64,000 nt of DNA from Promethearchaeati archaeon SRVP18_Atabeyarchaeia-1 (GCA_037308085.1 CP147779.1:1760001-1824000); one strand, 5' to 3'. Counted from the first letter of the stretch, positions 45,752-51,021 are shown. Notes: a model not told the origin generated them from the sequence alone. Translations and numbers: made by a program.

Positions 45752-46681
45752 CTATCTCTCAAAGATCTTATACATTGGATGTTTCCCTGGCTCAGGCTTA
45801 ACGTTGTAGGTTCTCTTCGCATAGTAGGCTGTCATAGCGTCTGCCATTGCTATGGCGGGAAACACCGCGTATGCCTCTTCTATTGGTCCGTAGAGGACAT
45901 AGCTTCCTCCCATCAGTGAGGTATAGAGTGCAGCGCCTGAGATCGTCGTTACGTACGCGTGTGGACCCATTAGCCCTTTCTTCACCTTCTTCCATGCAGT
46001 GATCGCATTTGACGGTCCGCAACCAGCGGGTAGACCGAACTCCTCTCTTACAAGTTGGATAGCGCGTGCAGCATACGCGATGCTTGGAACATCAAGCACG
46101 GCGGTGTCCACGATTACGTTCTGGATACCCGCCTCTTTGGCAAAATCAAGCAATCCTGTTTTGCCGCCTTCGCCTTTGAGCACTTTTATTCTGCCCTCGG
46201 GGGTCATGTCTCTAGAGTTGAAGGCGAGAATGATGCTAGATTCCACATCAAGATCTCTGAGCGCATCAATTTCGCTCTGCCTCGGGGTCTCCATGATGGA
46301 GTTGTAGATCGCTCTTCTCATCAAGCCAACTTCGGATACATGGCGCATAGCCTCGATTCTGACTTCCGGCGCCGTGCTGTCGACAAGGAAGGGCTCTTCA
46401 GCTGCTTCAGCTGCGAAATCGATGTACTTTATGAGCGCCTCAGACGTGTTACCGACGACATCCAACACGGCTGGGTTTCCGGTCTTGTCCGACATCTCTT
46501 CCTGTGCCTTGATTAGCTCCTCCGCCTTGCTCTTGTCGAATGTGCCCTTCATGGGATCGGAGACAATCTTGTGCTTATCGTAGAAGATGGTTCCAATGAG
46601 CACGGTTGGATATTGACCGATCTGACCGCCGAACTTGACTCCCGCAACGTCGATGACAATTTGCTCCTTGTTGAACTTCAT
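45752..46681 (-). CDS. mtrH: MtrH-family pterin:corrinoid methyltransferase (stand-alone)
   Basis: KFNKEQ...GGQIGQYPTVLIGTIFY, PFLVDST, IYNSI, GCGPSNA, LYGPIE. Confidence 0.92.
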   Translation of the reverse strand: MKFNKEQIVIDVAGVKFGGQIGQYPTVLIGTIFYDKHKIVSDPMKGTFDKSKAEELIKAQEEMSDKTGNPAVLDVVGNTSEALIKYIDFAAEAAEEPFLVDSTAPEVRIEAMRHVSEVGLMRRAIYNSIMETPRQSEIDALRDLDVESSIILAFNSRDMTPEGRIKVLKGEGGKTGLLDFAKEAGIQNVIVDTAVLDVPSIAYAARAIQLVREEFGLPAGCGPSNAITAWKKVKKGLMGPHAYVTTISGAALYTSLMGGSYVLYGPIEEAYAVFPAIAMADAMTAYYAKRTYNVKPEPGKHPMYKIFER

Positions 46682-47019
46682 CAAGATGCTAACGCCTCTG
46701 CAGCGCAGGTGAACTCGAATGCGCATAATCGTATGGCTCAGAAGGGTGGCTTGCTCACCGATTCTGTATCCTTGATCGCTTATATTGCTTTGTTGGGATC
46801 GAGTGCAGAGAGTCATGGCTAGATGATCCCGCAAGCAGGTGCGCTTGGCAACGTGAAGGGCTTGAAAGACCGCACCAAACAGCCGAGAATCGCAAGACCA
46901 CGGGCTTTGGCAGAGGGTAGATGGCATCCTAAGCTTCGACTGATGACTGGCGTCGGCCAGCTACGCCTTCCACCTTAGGACCATACCGGCCTTGAGCTTG
47001 ATATGATCATGCTTGCCAA

Positions 47020-48039
47020 TCAGAATGTTGAGAAACCAATTCGCATCTGGTCCATAATTGCCCCCTTTTGCTCCTGAAGTATTCTATCAACATTCTCGCG
47101 AGTAACTGCTTTCGTTGTGCCGACGTCCGTCACACAGGCAGCCCCAGCGGCCTGCCCTTCAAGCAGGAGGTCCAGCAACTCCTTTCTGGTCAGAGCGGCT
47201 ACGTCGATCTTTCCCAGTTTGTCCGCTTTCCTAGTCAGGTAGAAAACTACCCCTGCAGAGAATGCGGCTCCAGCACCCATCGGATCAACGACAGGAACCT
47301 TGAAAGCCGGCATGGCGACCCTATCATAGGCGTGCTTGGCGACCAACCCCTCATTGCCCAAGGTGATTATCGGGAGTTTTACCCCTCGATTGGCGATGGC
47401 GTTGAGTGCTTCAGTTGACTTGTGCTTACCTGTCATGCTTTCCGCTTCTGTACCGTTACAGTGCAGCACATCAATCCATTCAGAGGCTCGTGCAAGGAAC
47501 TCCCACCCATGTCCCTGCGGCTGGATTGGGTCAACGACGGTCACACAGTCGAGTTCCTCCTTGACCTCCCTTAGGATCCGAGGAAGCTGCTCGTCAAACA
47601 GTCCGAGGGATCCAGTTGCACCAATGTAGAATACGCAGGGTCTCTCCCTTCTCAGCAAATCTCTCACTTTGAGTGGCTCAAGGAGCGTGTTTGCCCCAAT
47701 ATCGAAATGAAATTTGCGGGCTTCACCTTCGGCGGATATTGTCGTGGCTGACCCAGTCGGAGTCTTCTCGACCTTCTCCACGTGTGTGACCACGCCATTC
47801 TTCTCCAATTCCTTGATGATGAAATCGCCGAGATCGTCCTGTCCCACTGCACCCGAGCAGCTGACTTCACCTTTTGCCAGACCCAACTTCAGCAGGTCAA
47901 TTGAGACGTTGGCCGCATGCCCGCCAGCAGAAAACCTTTCTCCAGACAGCGCGGATGTTGCCTCCCCTGGGGCAGCGGCTTCGAGCTGACCGCTAGCAGT
48001 AATGTCGACAACCAGCATACCCGTACAGGTAACGAGCAA
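47020..48039 (-). CDS. PfkB/ribokinase-family carbohydrate kinase with the catalytic Asp replaced by Ala
   Basis: GGHAANV, GAVGQDDLG, N.TEA, ITLG..G, VVDPMGAGAAF (canonical D..GAGD). Confidence 0.85.
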   Translation of the reverse strand: MLVTCTGMLVVDITASGQLEAAAPGEATSALSGERFSAGGHAANVSIDLLKLGLAKGEVSCSGAVGQDDLGDFIIKELEKNGVVTHVEKVEKTPTGSATTISAEGEARKFHFDIGANTLLEPLKVRDLLRRERPCVFYIGATGSLGLFDEQLPRILREVKEELDCVTVVDPIQPQGHGWEFLARASEWIDVLHCNGTEAESMTGKHKSTEALNAIANRGVKLPIITLGNEGLVAKHAYDRVAMPAFKVPVVDPMGAGAAFSAGVVFYLTRKADKLGKIDVAALTRKELLDLLLEGQAAGAACVTDVGTTKAVTRENVDRILQEQKGAIMDQMRIGFSTF

Positions 48040-48114
48040 AATGGATAGTACTCCTCTGCAGCTCGTGCTTCTGAAATGAGATATGGTCTCATGATATTTG
48101 AAAGGATGGTACGG

Positions 48115-48246
48115 GGTTCTGTTAACTCTTGGGGTGATGAGTTAACTGGGTAGCATCGACTCCGAGGATTACCTGTTCCTTCCGCTCCTCAGGGTTCCCC
48201 TTCACCGCTTCACCTGCCGCTCCCTTCAGGCTGAACCGCAGCCCTG
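48115..48246 (-). ncRNA. Putative omega/reRNA scaffold overlapping the tnpB 3' end
   Basis: Non-conserved protein tail after RuvC-III; hairpins GGCTG/CAGCC (48229-48243) and GTTAACTC-N10-GAGTTAAC (48121-48146); position inferred from known TnpB loci, boundaries uncertain. Confidence 0.55.
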
Positions 48247-49288
48247 CGCCGACGATATTCAGAGCCCCATTCTCATCCCTGTCCACGAGCCTCCTGCAGC
48301 GTGGGCAGTAGACCTTCCTCCCTGCGCATTCGACTATCTTGGAGCCACATATCGCGCAGATTGAGGAAGTCTTGGATGGATTAACGTAAAATACTGGGAT
48401 ACCATCCCAGCGTGCCTTGTACTCTATTTGCCGCTGCAGCTCGGCGTAGCTCCAGCTGTTCATCCTTGCCCTGTAGTCCTTGCCCTGCCAGTTTCCCTTC
48501 CTGTAGAGTTTGCGGATGCCTCTGATGTCCTCCATGACTATGCCGAACTGCCTTTCCTTCGCCTCCTTCACTATGCTTGCTGAAGTGTTGTGCAGTATCC
48601 AGTTTACCTTGCTCCTCTGGATTCTTCCGTATTTGGAGTAGAGCTGCTTCCTGACGCGGCAATCGCTTCTTCTGAGGCCTCGCTTCGCCTGCCTACAGTT
48701 CTCCTTGATCTCGGTCGCCCTCGACAGGTCATACCTCCTCATATCTCCAGCCGAGGATGCAGTGGTTACATTGTCGAGGTTGCGGTCTACCCCGACTAGC
48801 CCCACAGGCTCAACCTGAGCAACCTCCTTCGTGAAGGCCAGTGACACGGCGGAGGCGGTCAAGCAGACTGAACGCACAGCACACCCCTCAACAGACTGCA
48901 GCGAGTAGGCGTTCAGCGGGAGGTAAACGTACTCTCTTGCCCTGATGGGCAGCCTGAGCTTGCCCTTGATTATCCTGAAGCCGTAGCAGTCGGTGAGCAT
49001 GAGCCTTGTTGCGCAGGGCTTCTTCACCCCCTCCCGCTTCCTCAGCGCCTGCCTGTAGTTTCGGAGGATGCCCGCGGCCTTGCTGATCGCGGTTAAGCGG
49101 TAGTAGGCTGGCACATCAAATCCTGCGAGTTGATGGTATGCCTTCTTTGAGAGCGCCTTCATCGAGGTGACATTCTCAGCTACACCAATCCTTAAGCAAT
49201 CGTTCACCATCTTTCTGAACGCATCCAAAAGGTTGAGTAGCTCTGGAGACGGCGTATAGTTCTGCTTCACCGCTTTGACCGCTTGCAT
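48122..49288 (-). CDS. tnpB: TnpB RNA-guided endonuclease (388 aa from ATG 49288)
   Basis: RuvC-I VGVDRN, RuvC-II IVMEDI, zinc finger CAIC..CPRC, RuvC-III DRDENGALNI; TTTATTA TATA box ~24 nt before the ATG (probably leaderless); stop codon lies inside the TIR. Confidence 0.96.
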   Translation of the reverse strand: MQAVKAVKQNYTPSPELLNLLDAFRKMVNDCLRIGVAENVTSMKALSKKAYHQLAGFDVPAYYRLTAISKAAGILRNYRQALRKREGVKKPCATRLMLTDCYGFRIIKGKLRLPIRAREYVYLPLNAYSLQSVEGCAVRSVCLTASAVSLAFTKEVAQVEPVGLVGVDRNLDNVTTASSAGDMRRYDLSRATEIKENCRQAKRGLRRSDCRVRKQLYSKYGRIQRSKVNWILHNTSASIVKEAKERQFGIVMEDIRGIRKLYRKGNWQGKDYRARMNSWSYAELQRQIEYKARWDGIPVFYVNPSKTSSICAICGSKIVECAGRKVYCPRCRRLVDRDENGALNIVGAGLRFSLKGAAGEAVKGNPEERKEQVILGVDATQLTHHPKS

Positions 49289-49390
49289 ACCCGAAAATGG
49301 GGTACTTCGGCTAATAAAGCCACCATACGGCCGAGAAGCCTCCAACTCCAACTTTCACCCGAAGAGTTAACAGAGCTTGGTTCGGCAAGA

Positions 49391-49441
49391 TTTAAATACG
49401 AGGACTCGTAATTTACACGCGAGAATACGACTACTCGTAAT
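49391..49441 (+). promoter_or_regulatory. TATA box plus tandem palindromic operator upstream of dtxR-feo
   Basis: TTTAAATA at 49391-49398; AATACGAGGACTCGTAAT (49395-49412) and AATACGACTACTCGTAAT (49424-49441). Confidence 0.7.
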
Positions 49442-49478
49442 ATTCCAGGACGTGGATCTTCCCAAAACTTGGAAAGAG

Positions 49479-50258
49479 ATGGTGAAGTTGGCCGAAGGGC
49501 AGGTTACTGATGTGGTTGAGGAATACCTAGAGACAATCTACAGGCTCCAAATGAGGGAAGGTGACGGGGCTAAGACAAATGACATCGTCAGAACAATGAA
49601 GGTCGTTCCAGGAACCGTCACAAATACGGTGGAGCGACTGGAGAAAGAAGGCTTTGTAGAACACGAGCCCTATAAAGGCGTTAAGCTGACAGAGAAAGGA
49701 CGCAAGATCGCGCTGCAAGTCGTCAGAAGGCATCGCCTATCCGAGAGACTGCTCACAGACATTCTCCACGTTAACTGGGGGAAGGCTCACGATATAGCAT
49801 GCAAGATTGAACATGACATCGCTGACGAGGAGGTCATGGAAAGGATTGAGGAGGCATTGGGTAATCCTAAGACGTGCCCTCATGGAAATCCTATCCCCTC
49901 TGAAGACGGAGAGTCCACAGATGACGAATCCAGTGTGAAACGGTCTAGGTCTCTCTGGGATCTTCAAGTCTCAGACTTGGGCGTCATAACGAACATCGCT
50001 GACGAAGATAGCGAGGTTCTGAGGTACCTTTCTGATTTCGGGCTGATGCCTGGCATGAACGTGGAAGTGATCAAGAAAGATCCCGCGGAACACACTATGA
50101 TTGTGCGGCTGGCTGGCTCCGCCATGCACACGATTACCGAAAAGGTGGCTTCATCCATCCGCGTCAGAGGGGCAGAGCGACTCAATAGAGCCGATATTCT
50201 GAACCGCCGCACTCACTCTGTCGGCAAAGGATCGACGTTTGGTGAATACGAAAGCTGA
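49479..50258 (+). CDS. DtxR/MntR-family metal-dependent repressor with FeoA-like C-terminal domain
   Basis: EEYLETIY, RRHRLSERLL, ACKIEH, CPHGNPIP. Confidence 0.95.
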   Translation: MVKLAEGQVTDVVEEYLETIYRLQMREGDGAKTNDIVRTMKVVPGTVTNTVERLEKEGFVEHEPYKGVKLTEKGRKIALQVVRRHRLSERLLTDILHVNWGKAHDIACKIEHDIADEEVMERIEEALGNPKTCPHGNPIPSEDGESTDDESSVKRSRSLWDLQVSDLGVITNIADEDSEVLRYLSDFGLMPGMNVEVIKKDPAEHTMIVRLAGSAMHTITEKVASSIRVRGAERLNRADILNRRTHSVGKGSTFGEYES

Positions 50259-50282
50259 GAAATGCTGGGCAGTTGAGCCATA

Positions 50283-50732
50283 ATGCAGAGAACAGAGAGA
50301 TACCTGACCGAGCTAATGGAAGGAGAGGCAGGGATCGTAGTGGATGTCGAAACAGAGAACTGCCCTGAAAGAGGCAAAAAAGGAGCGCGCAGTGGCGTGA
50401 GCTGCGTGGCCGGCTGTGCCTCGAGGTGGGGTGCAGTTCAAAGGCTCTCGGAATTAGGCTTGACTCTTGGAACGGAGGTCACCATGACGAGTTCTGCTCC
50501 CCTCAATGGATCTCTTGAGGTATCCGCCAGAGGACGTAAGATAGTACTCGGAAATGAGTTGGCCTCACGGATCGTAGTCACGGAAACCAATCGTGATGAG
50601 CGCCCGAGTCGGAAAAACTCGAATGAAATAGCTAGCAAGAAAGGCGTTCAAAGGCGAAACCAAAATAGGTTGCCTCACACGAGAGCCGTGCAAAAAGAAA
50701 TAGAAGAGTACAGAGGGATACGTCTTGACTAA
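50283..50732 (+). CDS. feoA: FeoA family protein
   Basis: RLSELGLTLG, SAPLNGSLEV..RGRKIVLG..LA. Confidence 0.85.
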   Translation: MQRTERYLTELMEGEAGIVVDVETENCPERGKKGARSGVSCVAGCASRWGAVQRLSELGLTLGTEVTMTSSAPLNGSLEVSARGRKIVLGNELASRIVVTETNRDERPSRKNSNEIASKKGVQRRNQNRLPHTRAVQKEIEEYRGIRLD

Positions 50733-51021
50733 GACTGTACTAAACTTGACAGAACTAACAGACGGACAAGGAGGCATTGTTGTCGGCGTGGATGGCTCAG
50801 CTGGCAAGAGAAGGGATCAAGATGGTACCCTGAAGGCCTGCTCCGAAGAGAAATGCGGGTTTGTGAGACGGCTCATGGATCTCGGTTTGACCCCCGGAGC
50901 CAAGGTCATGGTTGTGAAGTCAGCTCCCTTTAACGGACCCTTGGAGATTCTGGTCAGAGGATCCAGAATAGCGCTGGGCAGATGCGTGGCTTCAAGGATC
51001 AAGGTGGAGGTGACGGGATGA
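50725..51021 (+). CDS. feoA: FeoA family protein
   Basis: RRLMDLGLTPG, SAPFNGPLEILVRGSRIALGR. Confidence 0.92.
   Translation: MTKTVLNLTELTDGQGGIVVGVDGSAGKRRDQDGTLKACSEEKCGFVRRLMDLGLTPGAKVMVVKSAPFNGPLEILVRGSRIALGRCVASRIKVEVTG

Follow-up and report, generated by a model that had tools for sequence, protein, structure and literature searches.

The locus described here, a tnpB gene lying by itself between inverted repeats in an archaeal genome, raises the question of what moves such an element and whether the nuclease has any part in its spread. TnpB is thought to benefit IS605 and IS607 elements by restoring them after scarless excision. A 2026 review (PMC13565253) also reports TnpB with ISL2, IS630 and IS1031, and describes the reason why DDE transposons would keep TnpB as unclear. 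An earlier note on this DNA had proposed that the gene is carried in a non-autonomous element with terminal inverted repeats (TIRs) and target-site duplications (TSDs), and that this element is moved in trans by an IS6-like DDE transposase, in a Fanzor-like architecture and in a probable Asgard host.

Ends and contents of the element

Positions are numbered within the window, that is, the whole 64-kb stretch of DNA that was analysed, which corresponds to positions 1760001-1824000 of a genome of 2,808,651 bp in one contig; coordinates in that genome are marked as such. We read 48115-49377 as a non-autonomous mobile cassette in which a promoter, tnpB and an omega-RNA scaffold are enclosed by the TIRs of an IS6-like DDE transposon, and we give this reading a probability of about 0.85. 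Its features are the following.

48095-48114, minus strand: predicted guide-encoding flank, made of the right-end (RE) side TSD copy and about 12 nt of host DNA, directly 3' of the omega-RNA scaffold; placed from the scaffold 3' end and from guide biogenesis in IS200/IS605
48107-48114, no strand: 8-bp TSD, RE-side copy, TGGTACGG; 7/8 against 49378-49385, other copies having their own 8-bp repeats
48115-48137, no strand: right-end (tnpB 3') TIR, IS6-like, starting GGTTCTG; it agrees with one TIR of the IS6-like transposon (genome 549276-555829) at 22/23 positions
48115-48250, minus strand: predicted omega-RNA scaffold of about 136 nt, overlapping the tnpB 3' end, its terminal hairpin using the inner half of the TIR
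48122-49288, minus strand: intact tnpB gene, encoding 388 aa from the ATG; its stop codon falls within the TIR; profile matches, conserved catalytic and zinc residues
49311-49319, minus strand: TATA-like box CTTTATTAG (tnpB strand), putative promoter about 25-30 nt upstream of the ATG, from sequence reading only
49355-49377, no strand: left-end (LE; tnpB 5') TIR with more degenerate outer bases (AGCTCTG); from sequence reading, repeat search and shuffles
49378-49385, no strand: 8-bp TSD, LE-side copy, TGGTTCGG, by direct reading
49386-49389, minus strand: TAM-like motif CTTG (tnpB strand), directly 5' of the LE-side TSD, where 10/12 A-lineage elements have TTG

Read directly, the two TIRs are identical at 20/23 positions as inverted repeats, and a repeat search returned a core of 20 nt with 95% complementarity. 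A degenerate 23-mer pattern of the TIR, allowing up to three mismatches, matched twice in the 64-kb window, in opposite orientation, with 0.00 matches expected from 100 shuffles. The inverted match covers the non-palindromic TTCGGGTGA and is therefore a true inverted repeat, not a palindrome repeated directly. The two 8-bp direct repeats adjoin the TIRs, and the sole long ORF between the TIRs is tnpB on the minus strand, which confirms what had been claimed of the ends and of the gene content; the cargo of this 1.26-kb element is only TnpB and its guide-RNA scaffold. The element sits between divergently transcribed genes for a PfkB-family kinase and a DtxR-type repressor.

The reading frame of tnpB, whose ATG lies at the 49288 side, is open up to a TTG at 49351, and its TAA stop (48122-48124) falls inside the right TIR. 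The product matched Pfam PF07282 (E 4e-19, 69 bits, cut-off 26.3) and NCBIfam NF040570 guided_TnpB (118.4 bits, cut-off 100), and it aligns to Cas12f and TnpB structures. The RuvC residues D168, E253 and D338 (DRDxN motif) and the zinc-finger cysteines C311, C314, C328 and C331 (CxxC...CxxC) are conserved in the protein alignment, and E253 stands 58 residues ahead of C311, which is the prokaryotic layout. Judged from its sequence, this tnpB is intact and probably active.

Copies, partner transposases and hosts

About 20 elements in the genome have the identical end type, each with its own 8-bp TSD. A genome-wide TIR scan combined with a TSD test gave 18 TIR pairs with flanks at least 6/8 identical, ten of them 8/8, and these pairs fall into four groups: an A lineage, consisting of the window copy, two other full copies and truncated copies; a B lineage of about 11 units, each about 1292 bp long, with a TnpB that shares 36-40% identity with that of A; MITEs of about 260 bp, in which the last ~135 nt of an A-type element follow a short left end that holds a TATA-like box, and which have no tnpB; and two large DDE-transposase units. 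The two further full-length A copies are 85-87% identical to the window copy and have the same boundaries (alignment at query positions 9 to 1269/1270); their TSDs, AATGCTAT and TGGAGCTC on the genome plus strand, are both 8/8, so that the three full-length A copies have TSDs of 7/8, 8/8 and 8/8. Copies ending at the same bases, each with an individual 8-bp TSD, were what the earlier note had proposed to look for, and both were found. At the place that corresponds to the TATA-like box of the window copy, a TTTAAATA or TTTATATA box is present in B-lineage elements and in MITEs.

Several diverged copies keep tnpB intact with its catalytic residues, and several others carry stops or frameshifts. 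The B-lineage TnpB has DRH instead of DRD and thus no canonical RuvC-III aspartate, so that this lineage may not cut. The DNA of the elements differs by 13-15% between copies, which gives no sign of very recent jumps; the TSDs are much better kept than this divergence predicts, and the insertions should therefore be younger than the split of the copies.

A search of the genome with PF13610 (DDE_Tnp_IS240) found two genes, with matches at genome 550019-550435 and 615632-616048. The first, a gene for 383 aa at genome 549896-551047, lies in a unit of 6554 bp (genome 549276-555829) with an A-type TIR and an 8/8 TSD, TGGAGAAC, and the second in a unit of 4419 bp (genome 614149-618567) with a B-type TIR and a 7/8 TSD; both ends of this second transposon agree with the B-type right TIR at 24/24 positions. 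The two transposases, 78% identical over the DDE core, score 65 and 64 bits against PF13610, above its cut-off of 27, and their top NCBIfam match is the IS6 profile NF033587, which they cover at positions 1-201 of 202 with 120.7 and 116.1 bits for a cut-off of 125. The longer of them has an N-terminal SWIM/zinc extension. Neither of the two transposase units of this genome contains a tnpB. Of five other genomes that carry this TnpB lineage, four have homologous transposases, of 56-78% identity. Two of these transposases are enclosed in IS units, of 1978 and 2165 bp, whose TSDs are 8/8, and at none of the 8 transposase loci examined does a tnpB share a unit with the transposase. The genome also has three Y1 TnpA genes (genome 478195, 1573364 and 1955413), all of them far away and none with a TIR match nearby.

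Since there are transposase units with matching TIRs and TSDs, and the Y1 genes are distant, the structural part of the IS6-like idea holds. An IS6-like transposase would bind the TIRs and insert the cassette in trans, creating the 8-bp duplication, and we regard this trans-mobilised reading as very probable. The suggestion that an IS6 transposase with the same TIR should exist was borne out by the two IS6-like DDE genes, and the claim of mobilisation in trans gains support from their location in units elsewhere in the genome. Shifting boundaries, missing TSDs and an association with Y1 TnpA had been named as outcomes that would speak against it; none of them was found, boundaries being constant and Y1 genes distant.

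The nearest protein relatives also support an Asgard host. The closest come from Candidatus Atabeyarchaeum deiterrae Atabeyarchaeia-2 (79%, on the chromosome) and from a Promethearchaeati MAG, followed by Bathyarchaeia (up to 60%) and then Nitrososphaeria. The genome analysed here is hence very likely the second closed Atabeyarchaeia genome that PMC11529989 describes. The lineage was present in 3/400 Asgard genomes (E <= 1e-50), the three genomes of this family, and in 9/401 sampled genomes of Thermoproteota, the phylum of Bathyarchaeia (E <= 1e-60). This distribution points to transfer among co-resident soil archaea and not to an old Asgard trait, and TnpB was probably acquired by transfer from Thermoproteota. 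Together with the prokaryotic layout of the protein, it gives no sign of an Asgard-eukaryote link. The relatives in Atabeyarchaeia, Bathyarchaeia and Nitrososphaeria retain the TIR/TSD architecture, with TSDs of 8/8 for those in G001, G002, G400 and G401, Bathyarchaeia being among the carriers.

Public wetland and freshwater-sediment metagenomes contain this DNA stretch. When metagenomes were scanned with the 19-nt right-end sequence, most of the paired ends bounded cassettes with other cargo, with the same TIR family and 8-bp TSDs. Six metagenome tnpB copies with this right end had no recognisable TSD, possibly through chimeric assembly of repeats, and were left out of the motif counts given below.

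The guide-RNA scaffold and the motif beside the left duplication

What MITEs retain of the element is its last ~136 nt, read on the tnpB strand from 48250 to 48115, and this scaffold stretch is the only part conserved in the tnpB-less ~260-bp MITEs, at 75-80% identity. RNAalifold, applied to 19 right ends from four genome groups and including tnpB-less MITEs, predicted 25 pairs, 15 of them with compensatory changes, TIR positions included. In the last predicted hairpin the inner half of the TIR pairs with the sequence just upstream of it, and where the TIR varies (TTAAC, TTACC, TCAAG) the partner strand changes accordingly. The covarying predicted structure overlaps the tnpB 3' end and stops exactly at the element boundary. 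By this comparative prediction, the right TIR is both the transposase site and the terminal hairpin of the omega-RNA scaffold.

In any transcript that continues past the right TIR, where the predicted scaffold ends, the added part starts with the TSD. Transcription would exit the right end, and the guide would consist of the TSD and the next ~8-12 host bases. The guide position is read here by the way in which TnpB guides arise in IS200/IS605 elements.

For the other end, elements were oriented by tnpB, or by the RNA in the case of MITEs, and the bases directly 5' of the left TSD were read. The A-lineage set had 12 elements from four genomes with TSDs of at least 7/8, and the B-lineage set had 10 elements.

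A lineage (12): beside the left TSD, YTTG, with TTG in 10/12; right side, 0/12
B lineage (10): beside the left TSD, YTTA, with T at -3 in 9/10, T at -2 in 8/10 and A at -1 in 8/10; right side, T[TC]A in 3/10

The difference between the two sides of A-lineage elements in TTG (LE 10/12 versus RE 0/12) has a Fisher p of 7e-5, and with a genome-wide TTG frequency of 0.019 the binomial p is 2e-14 for 9/11. Base -1 separates the lineages, with G in the A lineage and A in the B lineage (p = 1.3e-5). The motif tracks the TnpB/RNA lineage and not the TIR variant, as A-lineage copies in G002 with a TTACC-type TIR keep TTG.

As a control we used 18 TnpB-free elements of the same TIR family, namely transposase units and small metagenome cargo cassettes. 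Their flanks were T-rich, 17/36 having TT at -3/-2 and 7/36 having TTG; the TTG share differs from that of the A-lineage LE side with a Fisher p of 1.4e-4, and in the cassettes the motif occurred on either side, even between homologous cassettes (L133 versus L173). The T-rich flanks of TnpB-free elements indicate that the transposase or AT-rich intergenic DNA adds a bias, and part of the motif may be due to it. The near-obligate, one-sided and lineage-specific motif is peculiar to the TnpB/RNA elements. The presence of this short motif beside the copies suggests that the nuclease still aids the spread of the element, and we judge the chances of a functional coupling of TnpB to the element through a TAM to be slightly better than even.

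The possible role of TnpB and comparison with known systems

IS6-family elements are generally regarded as transposing replicatively; on that assumption, restoration of the element after excision, which is what TnpB classically does, would have no place here. With the lineage motif just 5' of the left TSD, an empty site would read TAM, TSD and flank, a full TnpB target. The guide from the right end would equal the same 8 bp plus flank and would match this empty allele. An occupied site would be protected at both ends: on the left only 8 nt would follow the TAM before the TIR begins, and on the right the full match would be preceded by GAACC, with no TAM. In this way the nuclease would cleave alleles that are still empty and so promote copying of the element through recombination, and insertions that happened to land beside a TAM would be those retained. 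We tentatively propose, at odds a little short of even, that a DDE transposon which makes TSDs and is probably replicative has in TnpB its allele drive. The IS6-like enzyme would scatter copies, of which only the TAM-adjacent ones become fixed. The ~260-bp MITEs, composed of TIR, promoter and omega-RNA, would on this view parasitise both the transposase and the nuclease while supplying only a guide. If this reading is true, the TAM-TSD-guide geometry is one that is undescribed for IS605, IS607 or Fanzor elements.

No empty allele with just one TSD copy, which the earlier note had suggested seeking, was recovered. Contigs of four public runs covering 46500-51000 contained no joint across 48115-49385; the insertion was present in all four runs, which come from two studies, and no polymorphism was seen. 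An exact search of metagenome_contigs with the reconstructed empty site gave no match, and neither G001 nor G002 has the element in its orthologous PfkB/DtxR intergenic region, both regions being too diverged to reveal a single TSD. A 303-bp skip from 48157 to 48461 was considered as a variant of the window copy and rejected, as it corresponds to a truncated paralogue at genome 1254037-1255002.

The same data may be read in other ways. TnpB could be passive cargo with no part in the spread of the element, the TTG/TTA motif reflecting a target bias of the transposase or AT-rich intergenic DNA. The metagenomes lend this some weight, since they hold many small cassettes, with unrelated cargo, that end in TIRs of this family and are flanked by 8-bp TSDs; so do the T-rich cassette flanks, where TT at -3/-2 (17/36) is common and TTG (7/36) exceeds its genome-wide frequency of 0.019, and the DRH for DRD of a B-lineage TnpB that may not cut. 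However, a bias of this kind leaves the motif on either side of homologous cargo cassettes (L133 versus L173), whereas in TnpB/omega-RNA elements it is near-obligate and one-sided (10/12 versus 0/12), and its last base differs by TnpB lineage, G versus A (p = 1.3e-5), even with a common TIR type. Several diverged copies, moreover, retain an intact tnpB with its catalytic residues, and tnpB-less MITEs hold the RNA scaffold under covariation. We therefore consider passive carriage rather unlikely. A stranded relic, formerly mobile but now neither transposed nor functional and kept by drift, would account for a window copy whose nearest genome copies are only 85-87% identical, whose left TIR has degenerate outer bases (AGC for GGT), whose TSDs differ at one base, and whose insertion is present in all four runs of the two studies with no polymorphism seen. 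Against this, the ORF is unbroken and retains every catalytic and zinc-binding residue, whereas several copies carry stops or frameshifts; the RNA scaffold and the right TIR are well kept; and TSDs better preserved than copy divergence predicts place the insertions after the copy split, all of which makes a relic improbable.

We give next to no credence to an ordinary IS200/IS605 element of the IS1341 type, moved by a Y1 TnpA, in which the inverted repeat would be a pair of subterminal hairpins and the 8-bp repeat a matter of chance. The genome does have three Y1 TnpA genes and other, distant tnpB genes, and the right end does form a predicted hairpin, but the inverted match spans non-palindromic loop bases, no Y1 gene lies near any TIR match, and the same TIRs and TSDs also enclose transposons that encode a DDE transposase, as well as tnpB-less cassettes. 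The TSD census, with 18 pairs having their own 8-bp TSD and ten of them 8/8, where a single 8/8 match has a chance of 1.5e-5, refutes the view of the inverted repeat as a mere IS605-type hairpin pair, which was rejected.

The reading of the locus as a cassette mobilised in trans by an IS6-like transposase makes this family a natural test case for TnpB in DDE transposons, with an identifiable partner transposase and ~20 copies in one closed genome. In it the RNA scaffold is fused to the TIR, and the candidate TAM is placed so that it would make an empty site a perfect target. The family is also a source of compact archaeal TnpB/omega-RNA pairs whose candidate TAM is 3-4 nt long. The findings do not support an Asgard origin of Fanzors.

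Among known systems, IS6 elements (IS26, IS257 and the archaeal IS6 group) share with this family a DDE transposase best matching PF13610/NF033587, an 8-bp TSD and non-autonomous derivatives with common TIRs; the TIRs here start GGTTCTGTT, which may be compared with the GGTTCTGTTGCAAAGT at the start of IS257. Unlike IS6, however, the transposases here fall just below the NCBIfam equivalog cut-off, one of them has a SWIM/zinc extension, and their units are 4.4-6.6 kb long with cargo. Furthermore, unlike IS6 MITEs and mobile-insertion cassettes, the element carries an RNA-guided nuclease and its RNA, and its TIR appears to be built into the terminal hairpin of that RNA.

TnpBs associated with DDE transposases, and solo TnpBs, were described in 2023 by Altae-Tran et al. 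(PNAS, PMC10691335), who distinguished six branches, DDE-1 to DDE-6, with inverted terminal repeats in all; they also found solo TnpBs whose ends are near-identical to the ends of elements with a transposase, and took these TnpBs to be mobilised in trans. The element described here resembles these in having TnpB between symmetric inverted ends, with the tnpB 3' end less than 250 bp from the transposon end. It differs from them in that the transposase and tnpB stand in separate units at all 8 transposase loci examined, in having a TAM-like motif one TSD length from the end and in the existence of guide-RNA-only MITEs. Among DDE families the accessible text of PMC10691335 names IS630 only; searches for IS6 with TnpB, together with that text and the text of PMC13565253, yielded no paper linking TnpB with IS6, and a paper on Atabeyarchaeia mobile elements reports five IS-like transposons and leaves TnpB unmentioned. 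Since the TnpB-DDE association and solo TIR-flanked TnpBs were already published, the novelty is narrower than the earlier note implied.

With IS1341-group IS200/IS605 elements the family shares tnpB as the sole gene, a predicted omega-RNA that overlaps the tnpB 3' end and stops at the right boundary, and a short 5' motif in the role of a TAM. IS200/IS605 elements, however, have no TIRs and no TSD, and their TAM lies directly at the left end (PMC13565253), whereas this element has TIRs of 23 bp, and its 8-bp TSD separates the motif from the left end. Fanzor elements likewise carry a TnpB-family nuclease in TIR/TSD transposons moved by DDE transposases, and to this extent, carriage in a TIR/TSD DDE-type element, the Fanzor-like claim stands; it does not extend to the protein, which is a typical prokaryotic TnpB, its E253 being 58 residues before C311, where in Fanzor the RuvC-II E is ~6 residues before the zinc finger (PMC13565253), and the host is archaeal and not a eukaryote or giant virus. 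In Fanzor the TSD is short and fixed, its 5' copy being part of the TAM and its 3' copy lying in the RNA scaffold (PMC13565253), whereas here it is 8 bp long and variable and is the predicted first 8 nt of the guide. What is new in this family is the right TIR as the predicted terminal hairpin of a covarying omega-RNA scaffold, and a lineage-specific motif 5' of the left TSD.

Divergent copies and the RuvC-III motif

Genome-wide, copies of the A lineage, the element's own tnpB family, and of the B lineage, a second tnpB family, differ from one another by 13-25%, but their TSDs nonetheless match at 7/8 or 8/8 positions, so that the insertions seem to postdate the divergence of the copies. This pattern suggests that A and B copies entered repeatedly from a diverse pool, rather than being amplified within the genome. 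The two lineages also differ in the RuvC-III motif, which is DRDxN in the A lineage versus DRH(V)N in B-lineage TnpBs, with NRH/GRH in two B copies, so that the usual aspartate is absent. Going by this motif, B-lineage TnpBs may be rearranged or nuclease-dead; even so, the elements carrying them retain the motif YTTA next to their left TSD.

genome 54083-55237 (locus L047:1501-2655): B-lineage tnpB copy, one of several

Derivatives and cargo within the same TIRs

We found a truncated A copy, MITEs of approximately 260 bp without tnpB, and a larger IS6-like transposon.

genome 1254037-1255002 (L004): truncated A-lineage copy
genome 868840-869096, 1260433-1260701, 2205592-2205851, 537694-537951, 673143-673403 and 1526452-1526708 (L006-L012): MITEs
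genome 549276-555829 (L062:276-6829): IS6-like transposon with A-type TIRs

In the truncated copy, which has no TSD, an internal deletion of about 300 bp fuses the RNA region to mid-tnpB, and its junction corresponds to a 303-bp skip in contigs from two public metagenome runs. Each of the MITEs runs from its left TIR through a TTTATATA-like box and the omega-RNA scaffold to its right TIR, and would depend on both transposase and TnpB in trans; three have 8-bp TSDs matching at at least 7/8 positions, and in the remainder these are imperfect or shifted. The IS6-like transposon contains unknown small ORFs and a type IIG restriction-modification gene of 995 aa with Eco57I, N6_Mtase and MmeI domains, and since this gene lies between A-type TIRs, a defence gene moves on the same transposase-TIR system.

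Insertion site and shared right end

The tnpB element lies about 10 nt from two near-identical palindromic boxes, which are kept in the related genomes G001 and G002 and are probably operators of the DtxR-type repressor.

window 49395-49441: two 18-nt palindromes, AATACGAGGACTCGTAAT and AATACGACTACTCGTAAT, in the gap that separates the element from the DtxR-type repressor gene

Exact matches to the 19-nt right-end sequence are present in more than 120 metagenome stretches (metagenome contigs, L102-L179). Paired ends with 8-bp TSDs mostly surround cassettes of 485-1622 bp, each with one unrelated small ORF and without a transposase, and in this the cassettes resemble mobile insertion cassettes.
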